Program-made: the position numbers and the translations under genes
In this document: one piece after another, positions 3,459-57,836 of the stretch
Numbering within the stretch: the first letter of the stretch is position 1
How the letters are laid out: every line of letters begins with the position of its first letter
Notes under the pieces: generated by a model
Seen by the model: the letters and a program-made list of their open reading frames with translations, nothing else
What the model was told of the DNA's origin: nothing
The model's database searches: none
Source: Flavonifractor porci
GTDB lineage: Bacteria; Bacillota; Clostridia; Oscillospirales; Oscillospiraceae
DNA length: 64,000 nucleotides
Direction of reading: 5' to 3'
NCBI RefSeq assembly: GCF_037572415.1
Contig: NZ_JBBHLB010000005.1
Span: forward strand, 150,050-214,049

Positions 3459-4210
3459 AGATTCAGCACCTCCCTGGCTCCGCCGAGCTCCTCCTCCAGC
3501 TCGGGCTGGACCACGGCTTTAGGATCACGAGCGTCTCCGTCATAGATGATCCGGCCGTCCTGAAGGCGGACAATACGTTTGGCCCTTACTGCAATAGAGT
3601 TATCATGGGTGATGAGGACCACGGTATCTCCCTCGGCGTTCAGTTTCTGAAGGAAGCCCAACACCTCCCGGCCGGTACGGGAATCCAGCGCGCCGGTGGG
3701 CTCGTCGGCCAGGATCACCGAGGGATTTCCCGCCAGAGCACGGGCAATGGAGACCCGCTGCTGCTGACCGCCGGAGAGCTGGCTGGGCAGGTTTTTCCGT
3801 TTATCCACCAGCCCTACCCGCTCCAGAGCCTGGAGGGCCCGCTCCCGGCGCTCGCTGCCAGGTACGCCGGCATACAGCAGAGGCAGCTCCACATTTTCCA
3901 GTACATTGAGCTTGGGTATGAGGTTATACTGCTGGAAGATAAAGCCCAGCATCTTGTTGCGGATCTCGGCCTGCTGGTCATCGTCCATGGTGGACACATC
4001 CACCCCGCCCAAATGATAGGTGCCGGAGGTGGGCACATCCAGGCAGCCGATGATATTCATAGCGGTAGACTTGCCGGAGCCGGACTGACCCACGATGGCC
4101 ACAAATTCCCCCTGATCCACCGTCAGGGAGACGCCGTCCAGGGCGTGGACGGTCTCCTCCCCCATCTGGTAGATTTTATAGACGTCTTTGAGTTCAATGA
4201 GGTGTTCCAT
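3455..4210 (-). CDS. ABC transporter ATP-binding protein (MacB-type ATPase)
   Basis: Walker [10 protein letters not shown], signature [15 protein letters not shown] and Walker [12 protein letters not shown]. Confidence 0.95.
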
Positions 4211-4213
4211 GGC

Positions 4214-5878
4214 TTAACCCATCCCCATCATAGCTTCCATCATATTGGACCCCTGGGGACTGGGGGCCAGGATCACTTCCCCCGCCTCCAGACCGTCCAC
4301 GATCTCGATGTAGCTGTCGTCGTTGCGGCCCAGGGTGACCTGCCGTGCCTCCGCGGCGGTGATGTCCACCACGTTTCCTTTTTCATCCAGGCACTCAGGG
4401 GTAGCCACCAAAACAGTGTTCCCCCGCTCCACAGCTTCCACCGGAAGGACAAGCACATTGCCCACCTCTTCCACAATGATCTTGGCGGAGACGTTCATAC
4501 CGGGATACAGCTCTTCAGGGGAGCCGTCCACCAGAACCGTGACCGGATAGCTGGTGTGTCCGCTGGCGGTGGTGCCGTTGATGTTGATCTTATCCACCAC
4601 GCCGGTGAAGCTCTGCCCATCCAGGGCGTCGGCGGTGATCTCCACCTTCTGACCCACCTGGATCTGGCTGATATCCTGCTCGTCGATATCCATCTCAAAG
4701 GTGAGCTGGGAACGGTCATAGATCACGGCGGGATAGGTCACGGTCGTACCGGAGTTTGACATTCCGCTGATGTTATCTCCCACATCCAGATTCTTTTCAA
4801 TGACCTGGCCGTCAATGGTAGAAGTAATAGTATAGTCATCCAGCTTCTCCTGGGCATTTTTCAGGGAGAGCTGAGCATTTTCCAGAGCGATCCTGGCATT
4901 CTCGATCTGGGTGTCCAGATCCGCTTCGGCAATCACGCCGATGACCTGCCCCGCACTGACACGGTCCCCCTCTTTCACATGGAGCACATCCAGGTCGCCG
5001 GAGGCCTTGGCCGTGATCTGAGCGGAGGCGGCATAGGTAAAGTTGGAACTGGCCGCGCAGGCTGCGCCGCCAATGGAGGCGGTACCCTGGCTGGTCTCAG
5101 ACAGCACACCCGGGTTGTTGACCTGAATGGTTACCTGGCGCACCAAAGTGCCGCCCGCTCCCACCTCATCGGTGGCGGCGATCTCAGCCACTGTACCGGT
5201 CAGGGTGGAACCGGTGCCGTTCACTGTCACCGTGGCGGTCTGTCCCACATAGAAGCCGGCGGCGTCCGCCCCATGGAAGGGTACCTTCAGCTTCATGTGA
5301 TCCCGGTCCAACACATCGGCGATCACAGTGCCCGCCGTAACAGTGTCCCCCTGCTCCACGTGCAGCTCGGTGATGACTCCGGCGTCCTTGGCGGTGATGT
5401 TCCGATCCTTCTGGTTGTCGCTCCGGGTCTTGAGCAAATCATCCAGGGCCAGCTGGGCCGAACGGACATTGAGGTGGAGCTGCTCAATGTTGTTTTCCAC
5501 ATCCTTGGCGTCGATGCGGAAAAGTACGGCGCCCTTATGTACCGTCTGACCTTCCTCAAAGGGAGCCTCCAGGATCTCGCCGCTGACCAGGGTAGTTACC
5601 TTGTAGGACTGGATGGGCTCAATGGTGCCGGTACCCGACACGGACACCGTCATATTCTGCATGGAGGCCGTGTAAGGCAGATAGGCGCTGCTGATGATCT
5701 GTTTGCCCGCACCCATACAGCGGGAGAGCATAAAGACAATGATCGCCGCGATCACCGCCAGAACGATCACCCGCTTGACCCACTTGCGCTTCTTTTTGGG
5801 CGCCTTGAACTCCGGGAGCTTCTTCTGCTCCTCCTTCGGCGCCACTGTGGTTTCCGATTTTACTTGGGTTGCTTCCAT
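4214..5878 (-). CDS. efflux transporter periplasmic adaptor (HlyD/MacA family)
   Basis: 554 aa with an N-terminal TM anchor and coiled-coil plus barrel-sandwich pattern. It sits directly upstream of the MacB-type ATPase/permease pair. Confidence 0.85.
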   Translation of the reverse strand: MEATQVKSETTVAPKEEQKKLPEFKAPKKKRKWVKRVIVLAVIAAIIVFMLSRCMGAGKQIISSAYLPYTASMQNMTVSVSGTGTIEPIQSYKVTTLVSGEILEAPFEEGQTVHKGAVLFRIDAKDVENNIEQLHLNVRSAQLALDDLLKTRSDNQKDRNITAKDAGVITELHVEQGDTVTAGTVIADVLDRDHMKLKVPFHGADAAGFYVGQTATVTVNGTGSTLTGTVAEIAATDEVGAGGTLVRQVTIQVNNPGVLSETSQGTASIGGAACAASSNFTYAASAQITAKASGDLDVLHVKEGDRVSAGQVIGVIAEADLDTQIENARIALENAQLSLKNAQEKLDDYTITSTIDGQVIEKNLDVGDNISGMSNSGTTVTYPAVIYDRSQLTFEMDIDEQDISQIQVGQKVEITADALDGQSFTGVVDKININGTTASGHTSYPVTVLVDGSPEELYPGMNVSAKIIVEEVGNVLVLPVEAVERGNTVLVATPECLDEKGNVVDITAAEARQVTLGRNDDSYIEIVDGLEAGEVILAPSPQGSNMMEAMMGMG

Positions 5879-6585: not shown

Positions 6586-6724
6586 CAGGGCGGGAACAGA
6601 ATTCACAATTTGTTCCCAACCACTTCGCTGGATAGCATAACAGACCCGTCTCAAATCTTCCATAAAAAAAGGATGAAATTTTTCTAAAAAATCACAACCG
6701 ATGGCAGCCCTTCCATTTTTCATG

Positions 6725-6757
6725 CAAAAGGGGCGCTGCACAGCAGCGCCCCTTTGA
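6725..6757 (-). terminator. intrinsic terminator after ackA
   Basis: GGGGCGCTG / CAGCGCCCC stem flanked by A/T runs, about 20 nt after the ackA stop. Confidence 0.75.
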
Positions 6758-6775
6758 AAAGATGCTTTGTTTTTC

Positions 6776-7972
6776 TTACTTGCCCACGATGGCGGCAGTA
6801 TCCATGGCGATCATAAGCTCCTCATCGGTGGGGATGAGCAGGACCTTTACCTTGGAATCGGCGGCGGAAATAACCTTCTCCTTGCCCCGGACATTGTTGG
6901 CCTCGGCGTCCATCTTTACGCCCATGAACTCCAGACCGGAAGCAGCAGCCATACGGGTGTTGGCATCGTTCTCGCCCACGCCGGCGGTGAACACGATGGC
7001 GTCCACACCGCCCATAGCGGCGGCATAGGCGCCGATGAGCTTCTTCACGCCGTACTGGAAGGCCTCCAGAGCCAGAGCAGCCTGCTGGTTTCCGTCATTG
7101 GCAGCATTTTCAACATCGCGGAAGTCGGAGGACACGCCAGAGATACCCAGCACGCCGGACTTCTTGTTGAGGACATTCATCATTTCCTTCATGTCCCAGC
7201 CATATTTGTTCATCAGGTACTCCATGATGCCGGCGTCCAGATCACCGGAGCGGGTGCCCATGGGCAGACCGGCCAGGGGGGTGAAGCCCATGGAGGTGTC
7301 CACGCTCTTGCCACAGTCCACAGCGGCCACGGAAGAGCCGTTGCCCAGGTGGCAGGTGATGATCTTCAGCTCCTCAATGGGCTTGCCCAGCATAGCGGCG
7401 GCACGCTGAGACACATAGCGGTGAGAGGTGCCGTGGAAACCATAGCGGCGGACCTTGTCTTTCTCATAGTACTCGTAGGGCAGAGCATAGATGTAGCTCT
7501 TGGCGGGCATGGTCTGATGGAAAGCGGTGTCAAACACGCCCACCATGGGCACGCCGGGCATGACCTGCTCACAGGCCTTGATACCGGTGATGTTGGCGGG
7601 GTTGTGGAGCGGGGCCAGGGGGATGCACTCCTCCAGAGCGGCCATGACCTCATCGGTGATGCGCACGGAGCCGGCGAACTTCTCGCCGCCGTGGACCACG
7701 CGGTGACCCACAGCATCGATCTCAGAGGCGCTCTTGATCACACCGTGCTCGCTGGAGAGCAGAGCGTCCAGCACAGCCTGAATGGCCTCGGCATGGGTGG
7801 GCATGGGGATCTCAAACTCATACTTGGCGTCCTTGGCGGGGACCTTGTGGGTCAGGCGGCCGTCGATGCCGATGCGCTCACACAGACCTTTGGCCAGCAC
7901 CTCTCGGGTGCCGGGGTCCATGAGCTGATACTTGAGGGAAGAGCTGCCAGCGTTGATGACCAGAACTTTCAT
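6776..7972 (-). CDS. ackA: acetate kinase
   Basis: [18 protein letters not shown]-terminus. The internal ATG at 7972 has a GGAG RBS, and the track extension to 8050 is non-homologous. Full-length AckA motifs are present, including HLGNGSS. Confidence 0.95.
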
Positions 7973-15035: not shown

Positions 15036-15095
15036 TTATTTGATATGCAGTTCTTTTTCCACATCGTTCAGGTTGATGGTGAGCATCCGGCTGAT
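15036..15095 (-). pseudogene. orphan second copy of the smc 3' terminus (19 codons plus stop)
   Basis: Encodes ISRMLTINLNDVEKELHIK* against VSRMLTINLNDVEKELHIK* for the functional end at 15258-15317. There are 8 nt differences: 6 synonymous, 1 Val/Ile and 1 TGA/TAA. Confidence 0.85.
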
Positions 15096-15257
15096 CCCCC
15101 GCCCAGCCAAGGCTGGGCGGGGACCCCTTGATTTTACTCAAATCGCCGGAAATGAATCCCGGCGATTTCAAGGTTTTTCCCCAGGGCAAAACACTTGACG
15201 GCGCAAGCGCCGCCCCGCCTTCGGCGGGTGGGCGTCAGCCACCAACCCGTAAAGATA
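15096..15257 (-). repeat. multi-hairpin repeat element, copy 1 (3' of smc)
   Basis: Shares the conserved core with copies at 21858-22005, 42821-42940 and 47183-47332 (GGGGTCCCC, a TTCAT-loop hairpin, a GTTTT/AAAAC hairpin). It contains GGGCGTCAGCC (15230-15240), the reverse complement of smc 15311-15321. Confidence 0.85.
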
Positions 15258-18200
15258 TCACTTAATGTGCAGTTCTTTCTCCACATCGTTCAGGTTGATA
15301 GTCAGCATCCGGCTGACGCCCTGCTCCTGCATGGTGACGCCATAGAGGACATCCGCTTCCTCCATGGTACCGCGGCGGTGGGTGATGACGATAAACTGAG
15401 TCTTGTCCGCCATCTGCCGCATATAGTGGGCAAAGCGCACCACGTTGGCGTCGTCCAGGGCGGCCTCGATCTCGTCCATCACTACAAAGGGAGTGGGCCG
15501 CACCTTCAGAATGGCAAAATAGAGGGCGATGGCCACGAAGGCCTTCTCGCCGCCGGACAGCAGGGAGAGCACCTTCAGCGCCTTGCCGGGGGGCTGCACC
15601 TTGATCTCGATGCCGCAGTTGAGGATATCATTGGGGTCCTCCAGCTCCAGAGTGGCCTTACCGCCCTGGAACAGCTCCGTAAAGGTCTGCTGGAAAGACT
15701 CGTTGAGCACGGCAAACTGCTTGGCAAAGATAGCGCGCATCTCCTCCGTGATATCGGCGATGATGCCCTCCAGCTCCTTTTTGGACTTCTGCACATCGTC
15801 CCGCTGGTCGGTGAGGTAGGTATAGCGCTCGTTGATACGCTGGAACTCGTCGATGGCGTCCAGGTTGATGTTGCCCAGAGAGGAAATGGACTTTTTCAGC
15901 TCTCCCACCCGGCGCTGGGCCTTGGGGACGCTCTCCAGCTCCACCCGCTGGGCCATGGCCGCCTGGTGGGACAGCTCGTAGGTCTCCCACAGCTTCTCCA
16001 GCAGGTTCTTCTCCTCCATGGCGGCGGCAGCCTTCTTCTGCTCCAGCACCGACACCTCCCGCTCCAGGTTGAGCAGGGCGCTGTTCTTGTCCCGGGCATC
16101 CTTGTCTGCCTGGTTGCGCTGGGCCTCCAGGGCCAGTTTCTCGTCGTTGATGCGGCTGATGGCGGCCTGGCGGTCCTGGTTTTCCAGTCGGATGTCCTGG
16201 AGCTGACGCTCCTTCTCCGCAATCTCCCGCTCCAGATCGGCGTTCTTCTCCTGGAACTGGGTAAGCATCCGCTCTCGCTCGGCCTTGTCGCCGGTCAGAT
16301 CCCGGCGCAGCTCTTCCAGTTCGGTCATGGACTTCCGGGCGGCCTGGGCCTCCGCCTCCAGGGCGGCCAGACGCATATTCAGTTCGGCAATGGCCTCGCC
16401 CAAAGCCGTAGCCTTCTCCTGGGCTTCGCTCTGGCCTCTGGCCTTACCCTCCGCCTCGGCCCGCAGGGCGGCGGCGGCTCCCTCCAGGGACTCCACCCGG
16501 GCGCGGGCGGCACGGGTATCCGCCTCGATCTGGGCAGAACGTGCCTGGAGCTGTTCCAGCTCACTCTTCTGGTCGGCACGCTGCTTCTTCAAATCGGCCA
16601 GCTGGGTATCCAAATGGCCCAGGCGCTCCTCCAGCTTAAGGATGTCGTCCTCATGGCGGCGCTGCTGGGCCTGAGCCGTCTCCATCTCGTAGGCGGCGGC
16701 GGTAGCCTCCCGCTTGGCCTCCTCCATGACGTGGGCCGCGTCGGCCAGCTGCTGGGCCACGCCGGTGCGCTGCTGAGCCAGCCGCTCCAACTCGTTGGCC
16801 CGGCTCAGAATGCCCGCGCTGCGGGACGCCGAACCGCCGGTCATGGAACCGCCGGGGTTGAGCACCTGGCCGTCCAGAGTGACGATCTTAAAGCGGTAGT
16901 TGTATTTGCGGGCCATGGCAATGGCCTTGTCCATATCCTCGGCCACCACGGTGCGGCCCAGCAGGTTGGAAAAGATCTTCTCATACCGGGGATCGAACTG
17001 GATGAGTTCGTTGCCCAGGCCTACAAAGCCGGGTTCCCTGCGCACGCCCTGATCCCGGAAGTCGGAGGGCCGCATGGAGGTCACGGGCAGGAAGGTGCTC
17101 CGGCCGCCGTCCCGGCGCTTCAGGTACTGAATGGCGGCCTTGCCGTCCTCCTCCCGCTCCACCACAATATGCTGCATGGCGCCCCCCAGGGCGATCTCGA
17201 TGGCTACCGTACAGGCGTCAGGCACATGGATGAGTCCGGCTACCGGGCCGTGGATGCCCCGAAGCTGGCCCTTCTTGGCCTCCCCCATCACCAGCTTTAC
17301 CGCTTTGGAGTAGCCCTCATACATCTTTTCCATCTCGGAGAGCATATGGATGCGGGAGTTCAGGGCGTTGTCCTCCATCTGGAGTTTGACGTGGCGCTCC
17401 TCCGCTTCCCTGGCCTTCCGCTGCCGGGTCTCCAGCCGCAGGGCGTAACCGCTGATGATGTTCTGTAAGCTGTCCCGGTCCTCCCTGGCCTGGTCCAGCT
17501 CCTGGGCGGCCTGACGGCGGGTCTCCTCCGCCTCATGGAGCCGCTCCTCACCGGAAGCCAGCTCCTGACGCATGGCCTCGTCCCGGTCCAACACCTCCTG
17601 GGCGGCAGCGGCCAGGGCGGAAATGAGGGCCTTGGCGTCGGCGGCGGAGGCGTTCTCCACCGCCTCCTTCCGGCGCAGGTCCTCCAGCTCCTGGGCAATG
17701 GCCCCGGCGGAGCGGCTGGCGGAGGCAGCCTCATTCTGGCGGTCAGCCAGCTGCTGCCGCAGGCCGGCGGTCTGGCCTTCCAGCTCCTCCAGCCGGGTCT
17801 TGCGCTCCCCGATCTGGGCGGCGATGGAGTCAGCCCGGCCCTCCTGCTGCTCCAGCTCCCGCTGGATGCGGTCCCGGTTCTCCAGGTTGTTCTGAATATT
17901 GGTTTTGAGGACGGCGATAGCGTTTTCCAGGCTGTTGGCATCGGCCTCCCGCTGCATCATTTGGAAGCGGACGCCCTCGGTCTCCACGTCCTTGTCCCGC
18001 ATCTGAGCGGAGAATGCCTCAGCGGCGGCGTACAGGTCCTCCACCTGCTGCTGGACCTCCCCCTTCTGACGGAGGGCATTCTCGTAGTCGGACAGGGTCT
18101 TGCGGGACCCGGAACGAATCTTCTCCAGCTGGTCCAGCCACAGGGAAATCTCCAGCCCACGCAGCTCGTCCCGCAGGATGAGGAACTTCCTGGCCTTCTC

Positions 18201-21125: not shown

Positions 21126-21203
21126 ACGGGCGACCATAAAGGTCGCTCCTACGGGGAAGTTCCGTGCCTCTGCTCGTAGGGGCGACCCTTGTGGTCGCCC
21201 GCG
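21126..21203. repeat. REPIN-like doublet of GGGGCGACC-type palindromic units
   Basis: Unit at 21175-21203 is CGTAGGGGCGACCCTTGTGGTCGCCCGCG. An inverted, slightly diverged copy lies at 21126-21156. The same unit recurs at 23329-23359. Confidence 0.75.
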
Positions 21204-21209
21204 TTCCCC

Positions 21210-21461
21210 TTACCGCCCCTGCTGCCCGTCTGTCAGGGGACGGGGTTCGTCAATCAGGCCCAGCAGATAATCCGCCGACACATTGTAATGCTCACACAGC
21301 TGGGCCAGTTTGGCAAAGGTTGACGCTTTCCGTCCATTTTCCATTTCACCGATCTGATTTGGTTTGATCCCCAGCAATTCTGCCAGCTCCTGCTGAGTCT
21401 CGCCCCGCAGTTTTCGCAGTTCCTTCAACCGTATGCCAAATAACTCGTTGGAGTACACCAA
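21210..21461 (-). CDS. XRE-family helix-turn-helix transcriptional regulator
   Basis: 83 aa. IRLKELRKLRGETQQELAELLGIKPNQIGEMENGRK is the HTH_3 pattern. Confidence 0.85.
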   Translation of the reverse strand: MVYSNELFGIRLKELRKLRGETQQELAELLGIKPNQIGEMENGRKASTFAKLAQLCEHYNVSADYLLGLIDEPRPLTDGQQGR

Positions 21462-21469
21462 ATCCCCCC

Positions 21470-21518
21470 TTGACGACCCCCACTAATAGCGTGTATAATA
21501 AATACACGCTATTAGTGG
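21470..21518 (+). promoter_or_regulatory. promoter plus perfect 18-bp inverted-repeat operator in a divergent intergenic region
   Basis: TTGACG (21470-21475), 18 nt, TATAAT (21494-21499). The inverted repeat CCCCACTAATAGCGTGTA-TAATAAA-TACACGCTATTAGTGGGG overlaps the spacer and -10. Confidence 0.65.
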
Positions 21519-21527
21519 GGTTGTGAT

Positions 21528-21767
21528 ATGAACCTTTTGATTTCCGACCTGTTCTCCCTGTCTCAGGAGCATTTCCCCGCCGTCCCCGACGCTGAGGACT
21601 CCTCCCGCCAGCGGCTGCTGTCCCGGCATCTGGATGCCGTCAGGGGCAGTCTGGGGGAGGATTTTGTGGACAAGCTACGGGACCTCACGGATGAGCAGGG
21701 CCTGCGGGATCAGGAGGCCGCCTTTCTCCAGGGCCTGAGGCTGGGCCTCTCCCTCCACCGTCTGTAG
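21528..21767 (+). CDS. small helical hypothetical protein paired with the XRE regulator
   Basis: 79-aa ORF directly downstream of the promoter/operator. The C-terminal EAAFLQGLRLGLSL resembles, from memory only, the F-x-x-G-[FL]-R-L-G tail of small proteins often encoded next to XRE genes in Clostridia (possibly DUF6809-like). Confidence 0.5.
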   Translation: MNLLISDLFSLSQEHFPAVPDAEDSSRQRLLSRHLDAVRGSLGEDFVDKLRDLTDEQGLRDQEAAFLQGLRLGLSLHRL

Positions 21768-21788
21768 GGGCCGATGCCCTCATCGGCC

Positions 21789-21860
21789 CTCCACATCCAG
21801 TCCCGCCAGCGCTTCCAAGGCTCGCTTACTCAATTCAGCGTTCTTGTTCCGCTTGTTCCC
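21789..21860 (-). pseudogene. orphan diverged copy of the trmFO 3' terminus
   Basis: Encodes GNKRNKNAELSKRALEALAGLDVEGR* against GKRNKNAELSKRALEMLAGLDVE* for the functional end at 22006-22080. Most differences are synonymous. Confidence 0.8.
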
Positions 21861-22005
21861 CACGGAAATCATATTTCCGTGGGAGCCCCGATCCTTAAAT
21901 CTGCTCGGGCGAAGTGAATTCGCCCGGCATCAAGATTTTGCTTCGCAAAATACTTGGCGCCGCACGGCGGCGGGTCGCTTTCGCTCCCGGGCAAGCGGAC
22001 GCGCC
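21858..22005 (-). repeat. multi-hairpin repeat element, copy 2 (3' of trmFO)
   Basis: Core matches the other copies, with compensatory stem changes. GGGCAAGCGGA (21989-21999) is the reverse complement of trmFO 22068-22078. Confidence 0.85.
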
Positions 22006-23310
22006 TTATTCTACATCCAGTCCCGCCAGCATTTCCAGAGCCCGCTTACTCAATTCGGCATTCTTATTCCGCTTGCCCTTGACCTTATAGCCCAGAGGCG
22101 GGATGATGCCGAAATTCACGTTCATGGGCTGGAAATCGGTAACGCTCTCATTGCTGATATACAGAGCCAGCGCGCCGGTGGCGGTCTCCTGAGGGAAATC
22201 CACCGGCGGCTTGCCGGTGAGCCGCCGGGCCAGCTCCACCGCCGCCAGGAAGCCGGAGGCGGTGGACTCCACATAGCCCTCCACGCCGGTGATCTGCCCG
22301 GCAAAGCAGATACGCGGGTCCTTCTTCACCCGGTAATACCGGTCCAGCAGCCGGGGAGAATCCAGATAGGTGTTGCGGTGCATGACGCCGTAGCGGACAA
22401 ACTCCGCGTTTTTCAGGGCGGGGATCATGGAAAACACCCGCTTCTGCTCCGGCCACTTCAGGTGGGTCTGGAAGCCCACCAGATTGTAGATGGTGCCGTC
22501 AGCGTTATCCCGCCGCAGCTGCACCACAGCGAAGGGCTCCTTGCCGGTCTTGGGGTCCCGCAGACCACGGGGCTTCAGTGGCCCGTAGCACAGGGTCTGC
22601 TTGCCCCGGCGGGCCATGACCTCCACCGGCATACAGCCCTCAAACACATTCTTGTCCTCAAAACCGTGGACCTCCGCCTCCTGGGCGGCACACAGCTCGG
22701 TCCAGAATGCGTCGTACTCCTCCTCGGTCATGGGGCAGTTGATGTAGTCCGGAGTGCCCTTGTCGTAGCGGGAGGCAAAGAAGGCGCTCTCCATGTCCAC
22801 GCTCTCAAAGGTGACCAGAGGGGCGGCGGCGTCAAAGAAGTTGAGGTAGTGGCTCTCCGGGAAGAAATCCTTAATGGCATCCGCCAGCACGTCGGAGGTC
22901 AGGGGCCCGGAGGCCACAATCACGTTGCCCTCTTCGGGAATCCGGGTGACTTCCTCCTCCACCACTGTGATGAGGGGATGATTGCGGATCTTCTCGGTGA
23001 TGGCCTGAGCAAAGCCGTGGCGGTCCACCGCCAGGGCGCCGCCGGCCTCCACCCTGTGCTCGTCGGCGCAGGACAGGATGAGGGAACCCATCCGCCGCAG
23101 CTCCTCCTTCAGCAGGCCCACCGCGTTCTCCAGCTGGTCGGAGCGCAGGGAGTTGGAGCACACCAGCTCGCCGAACCACTGGGTGTGGTGGGCGGGGGTC
23201 ATTTTGTGGGGCTTCATTTCCTTCAGGATCACGGGGATGCCCCGCCGGGCCAGCTGCCACGCAGCCTCACACCCGGCCAGACCCGCGCCGATCACGCGTA
23301 CAGGTTCCAT
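22006..23310 (-). CDS. trmFO: methylenetetrahydrofolate--tRNA-(uracil-5-)-methyltransferase
   Basis: VIGAGLAGCEAAWQLA FAD-binding N-terminus; 434 aa; conserved topA-trmFO synteny. Confidence 0.95.
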   Translation of the reverse strand: MEPVRVIGAGLAGCEAAWQLARRGIPVILKEMKPHKMTPAHHTQWFGELVCSNSLRSDQLENAVGLLKEELRRMGSLILSCADEHRVEAGGALAVDRHGFAQAITEKIRNHPLITVVEEEVTRIPEEGNVIVASGPLTSDVLADAIKDFFPESHYLNFFDAAAPLVTFESVDMESAFFASRYDKGTPDYINCPMTEEEYDAFWTELCAAQEAEVHGFEDKNVFEGCMPVEVMARRGKQTLCYGPLKPRGLRDPKTGKEPFAVVQLRRDNADGTIYNLVGFQTHLKWPEQKRVFSMIPALKNAEFVRYGVMHRNTYLDSPRLLDRYYRVKKDPRICFAGQITGVEGYVESTASGFLAAVELARRLTGKPPVDFPQETATGALALYISNESVTDFQPMNVNFGIIPPLGYKVKGKRNKNAELSKRALEMLAGLDVE

Positions 23311-23328
23311 AGGTTCTCCTTTTCAGCC

Positions 23329-23359
23329 CGTAGGGGCGACCCTTGCGGCCGCCCCTACG
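23329..23359. repeat. single GGGGCGACC-type REP-like hairpin overlapping the topA stop codon
   Basis: CGTAGGGGCG-ACCCTTGCGGC-CGCCCCTACG. The topA TAG (23357-23355) lies in the right arm. Confidence 0.75.
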
Positions 23360-42409: not shown

Positions 42410-42826
42410 TTGTTATCAAGCGCTCTCCTGCTCCTTCTTCTCTTCCTGCTTCTTCTGGAAGCCAGCAAGATCAATCACCTTGGAAGCATTGGAACTAAAA
42501 TCGGGCTGCTCCTTGTACTTTGGGAACTGGGTCTCAAACCAATTCCGCACAAACTTGTAGGGGATGGGCTGCTCCAGGGAGCAGGTCTTGACCACCTCAG
42601 ACTGGGCCAACAGCTCACCAGCATTCTGAAACACGCCCATATACTTCTCCATGTTTGCGCAAGTCAGGTTCTTGTAGGTGCGTTTGCTGGCATTTTTCTT
42701 GATGGTCTTGGTCGCTATCTGAGTACTGGGGAAGTCCTGGCGGTAAGCTCTCCACTCTCTGTATTCAGGAGGGCCGAAGATACGGGTCTGCTTCTTGAAA
42801 GCCTTGCCGTGGTGGGCAATCCCCAT
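42410..42826 (-). CDS. hypothetical ORF whose 5' end is a relic rubrerythrin C-terminus (status uncertain)
   Basis: The first codons, IAHHGKAFKKQTRIFG, parallel the [16 protein letters not shown] end of the neighbouring rubrerythrin. The rest is Lys-rich with no family recognised. An internal ATG (MEKYMGV..) is an alternative start. Confidence 0.35.
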
Positions 42827-42940
42827 GGGACAAATCCCATGGGGACCCCAATGATTTCATCTGCTCGGGCGGAGTGAATCCGCCCGGCTTCGAGGTTTCA
42901 GCTTCGCCAAAACCCTCGGTGACGAGGCCCGCCACGGCAA
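42821..42940 (-). repeat. multi-hairpin repeat element, copy 3 (3' of reverse rubrerythrin)
   Basis: CCCCATGGGA-CAAA-TCCCATGGGG hairpin, GGGGACCCC, a TTCAC-loop hairpin and a GGTTTC..AAACC hairpin. 42921-42940 is the exact reverse complement of rubrerythrin 43022-43041. Confidence 0.85.
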
Positions 42941-42974
42941 AAAAGATCCCGGTCCGTTGGACCGGGATCTTTTA
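42939..42974 (-). terminator. intrinsic terminator of reverse rubrerythrin
   Basis: Minus strand reads AAAAGATCCCGGTCC-AACG-GACCGGGATCTTTTTT, 11 nt after the stop. Confidence 0.85.
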
Positions 42975-42984
42975 GGTATTCAGA

Positions 42985-43527
42985 TTAGCCGAAGTAACGC
43001 TTCAGCAGGCCCTCGAAAGCCTTGCCGTGGCGGGCCTCGTCGCGAGCCATCTCGTGGACGGTGTCGTGGATGGCGTCCAGGTTGTGCTCCTTGGCCAGCT
43101 TGGCCAGCTCGAACTTGCCGGCGGTAGCGCCGTTCTCGGCGTCCACACGCATCTCCAGGTTCTTCTTGGTGGAATCGGTCAGAACCTCACCCAGCAGCTC
43201 GGCAAACTTGGCGGCGTGCTCGGCCTCCTCCAGAGCGGCCTTCTCCCAGTACAGGCCGATCTCGGGGTAGCCCTCACGATGAGCCACACGGCTCATGGCC
43301 AGATACATACCGACCTCGGAGCACTCGCCCTCAAAGTTCATGCGCAGGCCCTGGATGATCTCCTCGGGAGCGCCCTTGGCAACACCGACAACGTGCTCAG
43401 CAGCCCAGGTACGATCGCCACCCTGGAGCACGAACTTCTCCTTGGGAGCCTTACAGATGGGGCAGAAATCAGGGGCGGAATCCCCCTCGTGAACATAACC
43501 GCAAACAGAGCAGACCCACTTTTTCAT
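42985..43527 (-). CDS. reverse rubrerythrin (N-terminal rubredoxin-like domain plus ferritin-like diiron domain)
   Basis: N-terminal [12 protein letters not shown]...CPICKAPK rubredoxin fold, followed by E..EXXH diiron motifs ([32 protein letters not shown]). Confidence 0.9.
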
Positions 43528-45509: not shown

Positions 45510-47120
<1,611 letters not shown>

Positions 47121-47146
47121 GCAACGCCCCCTTATGCTGACTTTCC

Positions 47147-47182
47147 AAGGAGGGACGCGGCAGCGCCGCGTCCCTCCTTTTT
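47147..47182 (+). terminator. intrinsic terminator immediately after gdhA (inside the inserted segment)
   Basis: AAGGAGGGACGCGG-CAGCG-CCGCGTCCCTCCTTTTT. Confidence 0.85.
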
Positions 47183-47332
47183 CGTCGGCCACCGGGGCCC
47201 CATCAAAGATGGGGCGGCGCGCAAGCGCCGTACAAGCGTTTTACCGGCAGGCAAAACCTTAATGCCGGGCGGATTCATTCCGCCCGAGCAGCTCCAATCA
47301 TGGGGTCCCCAACCTGCCCCGCAGGTTGGGGC
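47183..47332 (+). repeat. multi-hairpin repeat element, copy 4 (3' of gdhA)
   Basis: It starts with CGTCGGCCACC, the reverse complement of gdhA 47081-47091. Then come hairpins GCCCCATC/GATGGGGC, GGCGC/GCGCC, GTTTT/AAAAC and CGGGCGGA-TTCAT-TCCGCCCG, followed by GGGGTCCCC and CCCCAACCTGC/GCAGGTTGGGG. Confidence 0.9.
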
Positions 47333-47370
47333 TGGCCGACGCTATGATCTGGCAGGGCGTGTCCTACTAA
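47333..47370 (+). repeat. perfect 38-nt second copy of the gdhA 3' end including the stop
   Basis: 47333-47370 is identical to 47083-47120 (TGGCCGACGCTATGATCTGGCAGGGCGTGTCCTACTAA). Confidence 0.95.
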
Positions 47371-55326: not shown

Positions 55327-55656
55327 ATGCTGGAGAATTTGATTGAAACCGCACTGCCCACCATCATCGCAATTCTGGAGATCATGGGCATCTTCGTAGT
55401 GGTCGTCTCGGCCACCGGCGCGTTTATCCGTTACCTGAAAGGGCTTATCACCCACTCCGGGTCAGACGTCAAGTTTGCCCTGGCCAACGGGCTGGCCATC
55501 AGTCTGGAATTCAAAATGGCCGCCGAGATCTTGAAAACCGTCCTGGTGCATGAGCTCAATGAGCTGATGGTATTGGGGGCGGTCATCCTTTTGCGTGCGC
55601 TGTTATCATTTCTCATTCACTTTGAAATGAAGCAGATACATCACACCGAATCATAA
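55327..55656 (+). CDS. DUF1622-like small membrane protein
   Basis: GGAGG RBS. 109 aa with 2-3 TMs. The ALANGLAISLEFKMAAEILKTV motif matches my recollection of DUF1622. Confidence 0.65.
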   Translation: MLENLIETALPTIIAILEIMGIFVVVVSATGAFIRYLKGLITHSGSDVKFALANGLAISLEFKMAAEILKTVLVHELNELMVLGAVILLRALLSFLIHFEMKQIHHTES

Positions 55657-55673
55657 TTCAGGAGGTACCACAA

Positions 55674-56747
55674 ATGAAGAAACTGCTTGCACTGATCCTG
55701 TCCGGTACGCTGACCATGGGCGCACTGTCCGCCTGCGGCAGCACGGCGGTGGTGGCTGTCCCCCAGCCTGAGGAATCTGCGCCCGCCGTCACCGAACCGG
55801 TTCCGGAACACACGCAAGGTACATCGGATGCCGCGGTCAAAACCGGCCTCTATCTGGGCACCAGCTTGTCCAGCAGCAAAAATGCCGCCGACGGCGAGGA
55901 TGGATACAGCCAGGCCAACGTCGAACTGGTGGCGGTCACTGTGACCGACGAAGGGGTCATCGACTCCTGCGTGATCGACTCCATCCAGGCAAAGGCCTCC
56001 TTTGACGCCACCGGAACCCTGACTGCCGACCTGACCGCCCAGGTGCCCTCCAAAAACGAGCTGGGCAGCAATTACGGTATGGGCCAGGTCAGTTCCATCG
56101 GCAAGGAGTGGAACGAACAGGTTCAGGCTCTGGCCGATTACGTAGAGGGCAAGACGGTGGAGGAGATCAAGGGCATCGCCGTGACCGAGGAGGGCAAGGC
56201 CTCCGACGCGGATCTGGCCGCCTCCGTTACCGTCTCCATCGCCGGCTATCTGGACGCCATTGAGCAGGCGGTTTCCAACGCCACTCATCTTGGCGCCATG
56301 CAGGGAGATCGTCTGGTTCTGACCACCTCCACCAACATTGCCAACAGCAAGAGCGCCACCGCTGAGGAGCCCGGCCAGGTCCAGACCTCCGCCACTGTGG
56401 CCGCCGTTACCCTGAGCGGCGACGTGATCACCAGCTGCTACATCGACGCTGTCCAGGCCAATGTGGACTTTGATGCTGCCGGCGTGATCACCACCGACCT
56501 GACCGCGGCGCCGCCCACCAAAAATGAGCTGGGCGACAACTACGGCATGGGCCAGATCAGCCCCATCGGCAAGGAATGGAATGAGCAGGTGGCTGCCTTC
56601 TGCGCGTATGTGACCGGCAAGACCCTGAACCAGGTGGCGGGGATCGCCGTGACCGAAAAGGGCGCTGCCGCCGACGCAGACCTGGCCGCCTCGGTCACCA
56701 TCGCCATCGGGGAGTTCCAGGCCCTGATTGCAAAAGCCGCCGCCTGA
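55674..56747 (+). CDS. lipoprotein with two tandem FMN_bind-like domains
   Basis: AGGAGG RBS. Lipobox (MGALSAC-GS). There is an internal duplication: aa approx. 80-205 and 225-357 both contain V.VT...G.I.SC.ID..QA...FDA.G....DLTA..P.KNELG.NYGMGQ.S.IGKEWNEQV...V.GKT......GIAVTE.G...DADLAASVT..I. Confidence 0.7.
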   Translation: MKKLLALILSGTLTMGALSACGSTAVVAVPQPEESAPAVTEPVPEHTQGTSDAAVKTGLYLGTSLSSSKNAADGEDGYSQANVELVAVTVTDEGVIDSCVIDSIQAKASFDATGTLTADLTAQVPSKNELGSNYGMGQVSSIGKEWNEQVQALADYVEGKTVEEIKGIAVTEEGKASDADLAASVTVSIAGYLDAIEQAVSNATHLGAMQGDRLVLTTSTNIANSKSATAEEPGQVQTSATVAAVTLSGDVITSCYIDAVQANVDFDAAGVITTDLTAAPPTKNELGDNYGMGQISPIGKEWNEQVAAFCAYVTGKTLNQVAGIAVTEKGAAADADLAASVTIAIGEFQALIAKAAA

Positions 56748-56801
56748 GTTTTTCTTCAGGCAGCAGCTTGATACCCCTGTCATTTGGAAAGTAGAGGTTA
56801 T

Positions 56802-57836
56802 ATGAAGCGAACGGCCACTTTGATCCTCCTGCTGGTTCTGCTCTGCGGGTGCGCAGCAGCCCCCGCAAAGTCTGACGACACTGGACTGAACCGCTATGAG
56901 GCCACATTTCTGACCCTGTTTGATACCGTCACCACCATCGTGGGATATGCCGAAACCGAGGAGGCCTTTACCGACACGGCCCAGGCCTTCCATGATGAAC
57001 TGCTGGAATATCATCAGCTCTATGACATTTACAACGAGTACGAGGGAATCAACAACATCAAGACCATCAACGATCACGGCTGGGAACACCCCATCAAGGT
57101 GGATCAGCGGATCATTGACCTGCTGTTGTTCAGCAAGGAGCTGTATACCCAGACAGAAGGCAGGGTCAACATCGCCATGGGCAGCGTACTCCGCCTGTGG
57201 CATGATGCCCGGGAAACCGGCATAGCCGACCCCAGCCGGGCGGCACTGCCGGACCAGGCTGCCCTGGAACAGGCCGCAGCCCACACGGATCTCGACAGCA
57301 TCCAGATCGACGTGGAAAAACGCACCGTTTTCCTGTCTGACCCGGAGGTCAAACTGGATGTTGGCGCCATTGCCAAAGGCTATGCGGTGGAGCAGGTCTG
57401 CCGGAACACCCCCTCTGGATTGCTCATCAGCGTGGGCGGAAATGTCTGTCCCACCGGCCCAAAGCCGGAAAGCGGCCATCCGTGGGTGGTGGGCATTCAG
57501 GCCCCGGAAGATCCGGATCAATATCTCCATACCATCTATGTGGAAGATGTCTCTGTGGTCACCAGCGGAGATTATCAGCGGTATTTTACCGTGGACGGCG
57601 TTCCATACCACCATATCATAGATCCTGACACCAACTATCCTGCCGGTCACTGGCGCTCGGTCACCATTCTGTGTCGGGATTCCGGTGTGGCGGACGCCCT
57701 CTCCACCGCCCTTTTTACCCTGCCCCAGAAGGCGGGACAGGCCCTGCTGGACGCCTTCCAGGCAGAGGCCATGTGGGTGCGTCAGGACGGAACCATCCTG
57801 TACAGCCCCGGATTTCAGGCGTATATCCGCGTATAG
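56802..57836 (+). CDS. apbE: FAD:protein FMN transferase (ApbE), lipoprotein
   Basis: MKRTATLILLLVLLCGC lipobox. ApbE motifs are present, including DVGAIAKGYA, SGDYQRYF and HHIIDPDTNYPA. Confidence 0.9.
   Translation: MKRTATLILLLVLLCGCAAAPAKSDDTGLNRYEATFLTLFDTVTTIVGYAETEEAFTDTAQAFHDELLEYHQLYDIYNEYEGINNIKTINDHGWEHPIKVDQRIIDLLLFSKELYTQTEGRVNIAMGSVLRLWHDARETGIADPSRAALPDQAALEQAAAHTDLDSIQIDVEKRTVFLSDPEVKLDVGAIAKGYAVEQVCRNTPSGLLISVGGNVCPTGPKPESGHPWVVGIQAPEDPDQYLHTIYVEDVSVVTSGDYQRYFTVDGVPYHHIIDPDTNYPAGHWRSVTILCRDSGVADALSTALFTLPQKAGQALLDAFQAEAMWVRQDGTILYSPGFQAYIRV

Follow-up and report, generated by a model that had tools for sequence, protein, structure and literature searches.

A 220-nucleotide unit at the end of trmFO, and a family of non-coding Oscillospiraceae elements with gene-specific guides and carried gene ends

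A stretch of 64,000 nucleotides (nt) from Flavonifractor porci (contig NZ_JBBHLB010000005.1, positions 150,050 to 214,049), called here the window, contains at its positions 21856-22075 a unit of 220 nt that lies within the 3' end of the gene for TrmFO. This unit is one copy of a family of non-coding insertion elements, each approximately 220 nt in length, that move horizontally among the Oscillospiraceae and that are probably directed to their sites by an internal guide through an enzyme acting in trans. The element brings with it a replacement for the gene end that it displaces. Neither this replacement nor the copies that the family places at the 5' ends of genes were seen in a preliminary description of the locus. 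The family is large and apparently undescribed; a search of full-text literature found nothing describing such an element, a description in a journal beyond the literature searched being possible.

The trmFO locus

The locus is made up of these features, where "element orientation" is that of the plus strand and hairpins are numbered H1 to H4 in that orientation.

22006-23310, minus strand: host gene trmFO, 434 amino acids (aa); its homologs are named TrmFO by their sources and carry Pfam GIDA
22068-22078, plus strand: intact target site TCCGCTTG/CCC (slash at the insertion point), at the junction between copy A and the trmFO gene body, still present after insertion
21856-22075, plus strand (element orientation): inserted unit of 220 nt, made of two junction nt, scaffold, tail with guide, spacer and self-carried trmFO end
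22006-22075, minus strand: copy A, the trmFO end in present use, which moves with the element; ends in KRNKNAELSKRALEMLAGLDVE and a stop
21989-21999, plus strand: guide GGGCAAGCGGA, exact reverse complement of trmFO 22068-22078; it spans the insertion point, with 8 nt inside the repeat and 3 nt beyond
21858-21972, plus strand: scaffold of the trmFO copy, four hairpins
21858-21885, plus strand: H1, CCCCACGGAAAT-cat-ATTTCCGTGGG; variable in sequence, its stem covarying across the family
21903-21928, plus strand: H2, GCTCGGGCG-aagtgaat-CGCCCGGC; loop RTGAAT conserved
21931-21956, plus strand: H3, CAAGATTTTGC-ttc-GCAAAATACTTG; TTTTG/CAAAA stem conserved in sequence
21958-21972, plus strand: H4, CGCCGC-acg-GCGGCG; optional in the family and missing from the rubrerythrin copy
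21780-21855, minus strand: orphan copy B, the resident trmFO end displaced by the insertion; ends in KRNKNAELSKRALEALAGLDVEGR and a stop (21780-21782)
21768-21789: hairpin GGGCCGATG-ccct-CATCGGCCC, resident and terminator-like for trmFO; it covers part of the orphan stop codon and is common to a convergent open reading frame (ORF) of 79 aa (21528-21767, plus strand)

The two gene ends form a direct repeat of 66 nt (21790-21855 against 22010-22075) at 86% identity and a spacing of 220 nt. The functional end translates to KGKRNKNAELSKRALEMLAGLDVE and a stop, the orphan end to GNKRNKNAELSKRALEALAGLDVEGR and a stop. Compared codon by codon, they differ by eight synonymous replacements and one non-synonymous replacement (ATG to GCG, methionine to alanine), with the orphan two codons longer; the preliminary description had put these numbers at about eight and two. 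The guide is present exactly twice in the window, at 21989 on the plus strand and as its reverse complement at 22068, where the chance expectation for any given 11-mer in 64 kb is approximately 0.015 occurrences. The coordinates reported earlier for the functional end, the orphan end, its stop, the core, the 11-nt match and the hairpin all hold. The antisense match reported at the duplication boundary is likewise exact, confined to these two sites in the window, and reproduced throughout the family.

Empty and occupied loci

Relatives that lack the element identify the piece that was inserted. One of them (locus L197, whose TrmFO is 92% identical to that of the window) is empty. It has a single gene end of the orphan type, ending in LDVEGR and a stop. 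The convergent 79-aa ORF is present there as in the window, and the target GGGCAAGCGGA is intact. Directly 3' of that single end stands a hairpin identical to that at 21768-21789. LDVEGR is the tail of a functional TrmFO in this relative (protein P0011). A closer relative (L196, 96% identical) is occupied by a unit approximately 98% identical to that of the window, with the tail LDVE and its stop, then GGCGCG, the guide and the scaffold. There, however, the unit precedes a very different resident end, with GAG CTT TCC against GAA TTG AGT in the window, which ends in LDVEG and a stop and is followed directly by plsX. The LDVE tail with GGCGCG and the guide is seen only in occupied loci (the window, L196, and L198, where the copy is decayed and has an internal deletion). 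Since L197 is empty where the window and L196 are occupied, the inserted unit is 21856-22075, comprising scaffold, guide and copy A, while the orphan and its hairpin are the resident end. The insertion point lies 23 codons before the trmFO stop.

This arrangement in L197 bears out the earlier suggestion that the orphan and the hairpin shared with the convergent ORF are the original trmFO end and terminator. That description had also called for a search for empty sites, bearing in mind genomes that might lack the element and already carry both ends. L197 is single-ended, and no empty-site genome carrying both was found.

One lineage has both states. The element is missing from five of its loci (L116, L117, L118, L119 and L122), whereas L120 has gained approximately 220 nt in a clean insertion with a duplication of 79 nt, whose downstream copy continues into the native terminator. 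Set against L116 and L118, the L120 copy gives the same unit boundaries as those deduced for the window. A decayed copy is present in another locus, L121. The scaffold stands at the gene end in only 3 of 80 metagenomic trmFO loci.

In L121, L125 and L129, a guide-like CCGCTTGCCC, or a decayed version of it, is found right after the trmFO stop with no scaffold. These look like the remnants of lost elements.

The element family

Four element copies are present in the window, at the ends of smc, trmFO, rubrerythrin and gdhA (host genes confirmed by Pfam). Every one sits between a functional gene end and its orphan copy, and every one has a segment complementary to its host gene at the repeat boundary, 11 nt long in three copies and 20 nt long at rubrerythrin. 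A pattern of conserved scaffold positions that matches exactly these four copies in the window matches more than 115 loci in the genome collection, nearly all from Oscillospiraceae (Flavonifractor, Pseudoflavonifractor, Oscillibacter, Dysosmobacter, Intestinimonas, Lawsonibacter and relatives). A covariance model (R1) built from the four copies finds 123 copies in 98 sources, and no fifth copy in the window. The trmFO copy has every mark of the family: an H1-H3 scaffold (114.9 bits with model R1), an exact 11-nt guide and a 66-nt repeat. Pattern, alignment and covariance model agree that it belongs, as had been proposed, to the same family as the gdhA and smc copies, in a different gene.

Three of the hairpins are strongly backed by covariation. 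Across the aligned family, the paired fraction of stem cells is 93%, where shuffles give 74.6%. Double changes occur in 645 cells; shuffling yields 205±10 of them, and sliding the register never more than 143. Helix H1 has double changes at all nine of its pairs, and H3 is paired in 97% of its cells. In element orientation (H1 to H4), the layout begins with the orphan copy B of a host segment, called S here, and continues with 0-3 variable nt, H1 (CCCC...GGGG), the conserved ACCCC..TGATTT, H2 (loop RTGAAT), H3 (AAGGTTTTGCC..GGCAAAAC), usually H4, a variable tail, the guide, a spacer of 0-70 nt, and finally copy A of S, continuous with the host gene. The scaffold matches no Rfam family. Rfam 15 gives no match at gathering score across the whole window, and for 21700-22150 at E<=10 only weak matches (E 0.07-8), far below gathering scores.

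A flanking repeat of the host-gene end, 26-193 nt in length and 82-100% identical, terminates at H1 in 86 of 100 copies, counting those away from contig ends. What is repeated is, in most copies, the final codons and stop of a long antisense ORF, which ends a few nt from the outer end of copy A.

No scaffold copies were found in viral contigs. The only match to a phage record is a partial copy that forms the extreme end of a 5-kb sequence named "Bacteriophage sp." (MT838705.1, from human faeces), which has no annotation. One copy lies on a large plasmid or chromid (NZ_AP023421.1, 5043-5128, the 504-kb replicon of Pusillibacter faecalis).

Some copies depart from the common layout. Variants in L057, L091 and L092 stand directly after tRNA terminators, with H1 either in the form GGGT...ACCC or replaced by the tRNA terminator itself. 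No long duplication was found at these three loci; L057 has a 17-nt near-complement to its upstream flank. In L114 (approximately 6600-7900, element orientation), three scaffold copies, the last of them truncated, are nested or in tandem in a manner unlike that of the usual arrays, the repeated unit seeming to break inside H2.

Guide and target

Of 73 copies, 46 have in their tail an exact reverse-complement match of at least 10 nt (10-16 nt) to the inner boundary of the repeat; with control windows moved into the gene body, only 2 of 290 have one. Guides are 10-17 nt long, with approximately 8-9 nt inside the repeat and 3-6 nt beyond its boundary, and the match stops abruptly on both sides. 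Because it spans the boundary, the guide was either derived from the uninterrupted gene or is under selection to match it. One scaffold serves at least 38 distinct targets. A weak motif is present at the target: position +2 is C in 38 of 47 sites, and position -1 is C or G.

Guides also follow their targets. Where the target changes synonymously, the guide covaries with it, as for a lysine codon of trmFO (AAG or AAA in L043 and L138) and likewise in L026 against L072 and L030 against L040. Guides stay perfect, and covary, while the adjoining tail and spacer diverge. The variable H1 was considered as a second guide; it has no enrichment of matches to the target region.

The carried piece stops, at its outer end, right after the T-run of the host terminator in approximately 8 of 38 targets, and at the three 5'-end targets it stops approximately 20 nt upstream of the start codon. 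As a general rule, the idea that this outer end is the 3' end of the host mRNA was rejected; in most targets, and in the trmFO copy of L120, it lies a few nt past the stop codon.

The two gene ends as alleles

A duplicate that drifts free of selection would be expected to accumulate non-synonymous over synonymous changes, by our estimate at roughly 1.6 to 1. The opposite is observed. Over 40 ungapped pairs of 3' ends, copies A and B differ at 116 synonymous and 24 non-synonymous codons, with 19, 15 and 118 mismatches at codon positions 1, 2 and 3 (118 of 152 at position 3). Differences that are mostly synonymous mean that the two ends are functional alleles of different lineages, not a gene end and its drifted duplicate. 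The divergence between A and B thus measures the distance between donor and recipient, not age. For this reason, the earlier view that the trmFO insertion is the "older" one is not supported: 14% divergence between the ends is no measure of time, and the unit itself is approximately 98% identical in L196, before a different resident end.

Other patterns point the same way. Deep synonymous divergence (serine as TCC or TCT against AGC) stands beside identical stretches in L063, in the three S copies of the L126 tandem, and between the window and L196. In L126, two stacked units with tails ending in LDWQ and a stop precede a resident tail ending in LDVAGR and a stop, and these LDWQ tails are close to the native LDWR of the L116-L120 lineage. 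Scaffolds in L018 and L085 are 98% identical, in the company of flanking genes that are approximately 86-88% identical. The unit moves between lineages, carrying with it the gene end of its former host.

The C-terminal tails of TrmFO are mosaic among orthologs that are 90-96% identical. Across orthologs 88-96% identical (P0002-P0060), the last 12 or so residues are hypervariable, ending in LDVE, LDVEGR, LDWR, LDLS or LEV before the stop. Such hypervariability fits repeated replacement of the tail by the element.

An intact target survives at the junction between copy A and the gene body, so further copies can stack there; tandem arrays are present in L007, L015, L018, L042, L101 and L126. In L120, L054 and L015, both S copies include native flank, which implies that a true local duplication arises at first insertion.

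Orientation and strand

Most copies lie antisense at the 3' end of a gene, and several lie sense at a 5' end. The 5'-end targets are an HMA P-type ATPase (L018, L085, L100), HisS (L055 and relatives) and a radical-SAM enzyme (L101), where S covers the 5' untranslated region (UTR) and the first codons. Relative to the scaffold, S is always on the same side of the insertion point. The orientation of the gene follows from viability, as S has to span the end of the ORF.

Because copies occur in both orientations with respect to the host transcript, a single cis-acting RNA (an intron, a 3' UTR element or an antisense RNA) is excluded, and the antisense/sense geometry, as read from sequence, argues for a mechanism at the level of DNA. 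Stem pairs of the G·U type are very rare, at 0.7% on one strand and 2.5% on the other, a rarity that fits DNA better than RNA.

Other copies and neighboring features in the window

The three sister copies in the window are these.

15037-15324, plus strand: smc 3'-end copy; orphan 15037-15102, scaffold 15096-15216, guide 15230-15240, functional end 15258-15324, target 15311-15321; Pfam SMC_N and SMC_hinge
42760-43041, plus strand: rubrerythrin 3'-end copy; diverged orphan approximately 42760-42818, scaffold 42820-42937 including the 20-nt guide (42921-42940), host terminator, functional end 42985-43035, target 43022-43041
47081-47370, minus strand: gdhA 3'-end copy; functional end to 47120, terminator, guide complement 47183-47193, scaffold 47213-47331, orphan 47330-47370

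The 11-nt guide and target pairs begin at 15230 and 15311 for smc and at 47183 and 47081 for gdhA; the 20-nt match at rubrerythrin begins at 42921 and 43022. Within the orphan rubrerythrin end begins an ORF of 136 aa (42416-42826, minus strand) that continues into unrelated sequence and has no Pfam match; it is either a chance ORF or what remains of another insertion.

At two other loci, ORFs that resemble tyrosine integrases (420 and 408 aa, identified by eye from sequence) begin 120-240 nt beyond copies at the rubrerythrin end (L013, approximately 4109-5370, plus strand; L074, ORF 739, element orientation). From sequence, an integrase island seems to use the same rubrerythrin end and to carry a 3' fragment of the rubrerythrin gene.

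The region around trmFO is also flanked by palindromes of a second, unrelated family, resembling repetitive extragenic palindromic (REP) sequences (GTAGGGGCGACCCTTGTGGTCGCCC and GTAGGGGCGGATGCCCACATCCGCCC, at 21169-21200 and 23323-23354). Several tandem copies of these follow trmFO in relatives (L116-L119, L130). The spacer between trmFO and plsX (21210-21767) holds the 79-aa ORF, which has no Pfam match and which in relatives adjoins a small HTH_3 ORF, whose counterpart in the window is assigned by synteny to 21210-21461. This pair, which may be toxin-antitoxin-like, is present in L197, in L198 and by synteny in the window, and absent from L196, an indel polymorphism. Elsewhere in the window, a 468-nt tandem duplication at 73-77% identity (55956-56709) lies in an ORF region with no Pfam match (55641-57650, minus strand, or 55674-56747, plus strand), and is probably a repeated protein domain.

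Proposed mechanism and alternative explanations

We infer from this anatomy that the guide directs integration. An enzyme acting in trans would use guide-target pairing at the level of DNA to recognize both the element's own end and an empty target, the pairing partner being either single-stranded DNA or an RNA copy of the scaffold. Where copy A meets the gene body, the element's own end has the same sequence as the target, and the enzyme would cut and join there. The unit enters at a precise point, and the resident end and its terminator hairpin are shifted downstream as an orphan. Since the gene is completed by the end that the element bears, insertion would be phenotypically silent, and an intact target is regenerated at the junction. 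Were the unit excised between the two equivalent points, the gene would again be intact, now ending in the orphan copy. Recombination between homologous stretches of the gene and of S probably adds to both spread and loss.

A stronger proposal can be made, which we hold tentatively and think somewhat improbable in its full form. Here, the elements would be the cargo and guide part of a programmable system for DNA insertion, whose enzyme reads a guide of 10-17 nt within a 120-nt scaffold and whose carried end spares essential genes. Guide and carried end would be rewritten together at each new gene, by a templated step that has no known precedent.

Several results weigh against guide-directed integration. 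The model does not account for the joint origin of a new guide and a new carried end at a new target. Recent retargeting was not seen: no pair of scaffolds at different genes reaches 90% identity, the maximum being approximately 81-86%, and only spread at the same site is documented. Further, ordinary homologous recombination could account for same-site spread, loss and the formation of tandems alike. Since occupied loci keep an intact target, there is no target immunity, a difficulty for a guide of the nuclease type. Pfam identified no transposase, reverse transcriptase or recombinase among 40 major ORFs of the window, and clustering of ORFs over the 115 loci gave no recurrent enzyme of this kind, only housekeeping families and one integrase at rubrerythrin. 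A Y1 HUH transposase (TnpA) was likewise not found in the window, nor as a recurrent neighbor in those loci. Last, the folding strand is given inconsistently: recurrent A·C in H1, and the counts of A·C against G·T in stems, favor the gene-sense strand, but G·T at the guide flanks favors the other.

An explanation by homologous recombination alone holds that a rare rearrangement made each duplication once per gene, after which the unit was a passenger, spread by recombination through the conserved gene and lost by deletion between repeats; the "guide" would have a structural role in place of a targeting one, perhaps as a helix that closes the loop around the carried end. This is unlikely in our judgment, and there is much that it fits. 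Different genera share orthologous insertions at the same gene. Most same-site pairs have diverged more in the scaffold than in the host gene, as vertical descent predicts; repeats are mosaic in L063, A and B have exchanged population alleles in L120, copies decay (L198, L121), and no enzyme was found in window ORFs or near copies. Accidental template switching in four steps would not recur, however, with the same architecture at 38 or more targets, each having its own exact match of 10-17 nt, nor would it keep guides perfect and covarying beside a diverging tail and spacer. The right-hand junction is fixed at the point defined by the guide even where the resident ends differ within approximately 20 nt (window against L196), which leaves too little homology for ordinary recombination, and long residence would have loaded the orphans with non-synonymous changes, an accumulation that is not observed. 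It is less probable still that the unit is a retroelement. Target-primed reverse transcription is known from non-LTR (long terminal repeat) elements and from prime editing; here, the scaffold RNA would pair through its guide, the displaced strand would be nicked, and a reverse transcriptase supplied in trans would copy the RNA, the variable duplication coming from a distant second nick or from a copied host transcript. The spread of duplication lengths (26-193 nt), the 0-3 variable nt at the junction of orphan and H1, and the carried ends that may be transcript ends (those after a terminator T-run and the three at 5' targets) would all suit this. Such rare G·U pairs would be unusual for a functional RNA, however, and there is no conserved promoter, no Rfam match and no reverse transcriptase nearby (115 loci, 40 window ORFs). 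The outer end mostly lies a few nt past a stop codon rather than at a transcript end, and a plain target-site duplication gives identical copies, so that foreign carried ends would need an extra step.

Very unlikely is a cis-acting RNA of the host transcript, be it a 3' UTR structure, an attenuator or terminator, an antisense RNA, or something intron-like that splices from the first copy of the gene end to the second. In predicted folds of both strands the guide helix does enclose the carried gene end (z = -3.2 and -4.7), and both copies look as if they were under coding selection, which splicing to the orphan would explain. Yet no single RNA could serve copies that are antisense at the 3' end of one gene and sense at the 5' end of another. 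In tandem arrays, even the middle repeats have only synonymous differences; close relatives with an empty site show that the gene works without the element; and no Rfam family matches. That the copies are leftover attachment sites of an integrase island, which targeted gene 3' ends, brought a replacement end and was then mostly deleted, is highly improbable. A duplicated gene end with a displaced orphan is, of course, the layout of tyrosine-integrase islands, and a putative integrase of this kind adjoins the rubrerythrin-end copies in L013 and L074. But these are only two loci of one gene, against more than 120 copies, spread over dozens of unrelated genes, that have one 120-nt scaffold and equally sharp boundaries in common, and an integrase protein leaves a target-specific complementary 10-17-mer unexplained. 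Finally, two near-identical repeats of approximately 70 nt at the 3' end of an ORF, approximately 220 nt apart, recall the template and variable repeats of a diversity-generating retroelement. This was rejected, and we give it almost no credence: the differences are third-position transitions rather than adenine-specific changes, no reverse transcriptase is found among the window ORFs, and the targets are housekeeping enzymes.

Implications

If the guide directs insertion, the family would represent a very compact, programmable and natural way to place DNA at a chosen site of 10-17 nt, and the carried replacement end would make insertion into essential genes harmless. This would be relevant both to the biology of mobile elements and to genome engineering. 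Even if spread is mostly by recombination, the family explains the mosaic, hypervariable C-terminal tails of housekeeping proteins such as TrmFO, and offers a dense set of presence/absence markers and orphan "fossil" alleles with which to trace gene flow in gut Oscillospiraceae. Genome annotation, too, will have to deal with short orphaned ends of genes, and with tandem arrays, 3' of many core genes in these genomes.

Comparison with known systems

The closest conceptual parallels come from elements whose targets are set by base pairing. In the IS200/IS605 family (IS608), the element end and the target are recognized by pairing with a short internal guide, and changing the guide retargets insertion; these guides are of DNA, 4 nt long, and act on single strands. 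The elements described here resemble these, and their ORF-less derivatives, the palindrome-associated transposable elements (PATEs), in being small and rich in hairpins, in having an internal guide, and in what would be a DNA-level reaction independent of host transcription. They differ in that the guide is a Watson-Crick match of 10-17 nt instead of 4, in the duplication of 26-193 nt, in the carried gene end, and in that no Y1 transposase was found. Where IS200/IS605 elements insert 3' of a fixed target of 4-5 nt and make no duplication, here the targets are gene-specific 10-17-mers, and 86 of 100 copies have a duplication.

Recombinases of the IS110/IS1111 group use bridge or seek RNAs as guides. 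A structured, non-coding, programmable segment set against a target of approximately 11-14 nt across the crossover, with a conserved core nucleotide (here the C at +2), is common ground. The difference is that here one contiguous guide stands in place of split donor and target loops, the duplication is long, G·U pairs are few and no promoter is seen. The DEDD or serine recombinase ORF and the bridge RNA loops that mark IS110 elements have no counterpart, as no ORF lies in or adjoins the copies.

Mobile group II introns, with their exon- and intron-binding sites (EBS/IBS), and group I introns, with their internal guide sequence, likewise pair 10-14 nt over the insertion point. They too have a lineage for each gene, home into empty alleles and transfer flanking donor sequence. 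Unlike introns, the present elements have no intron domains or ribozyme match (Rfam to E<=10) and no fixed orientation; they occur in both, which leaves no place for splicing, and they are made harmless by the carried end. Non-LTR retrotransposons and their non-coding dependents (short interspersed elements, or SINEs) share the dependence on functions supplied in trans, the variable duplications and the few untemplated bases at one junction. Here, the duplications are far longer and their copies come from different lineages, there is a guide, a poly-A or tRNA-like part is missing, and the search for a reverse transcriptase found none. Miniature inverted-repeat transposable elements (MITEs) are defined by terminal inverted repeats and a duplication of 2-10 bp; here, the ends are H1 (CCCC...) and host-derived sequence, with no terminal inverted repeat, and the duplication is 26-193 nt. 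Diversity-generating retroelements have adenine-specific differences and a linked reverse transcriptase, neither of which was seen.

In their effect on the gene, the elements are most like integrative elements that enter tRNA genes or gene ends, and their integrase-less, cis-mobilizable derivatives (CIMEs): the gene is completed by element sequence, and the resident end is orphaned on the far side. Here, this is done by 220 nt instead of kilobases, without an integrase, at dozens of guided targets, and also at 5' ends. An integrase typically has one attB, against at least 38 targets here, with an integrase adjacent only at the rubrerythrin copies of L013 and L074. The elements join a gene-specific guide and a self-carried replacement end in a single non-coding unit of 220 nt. 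That anatomy is well supported, and from it we infer the mechanism.

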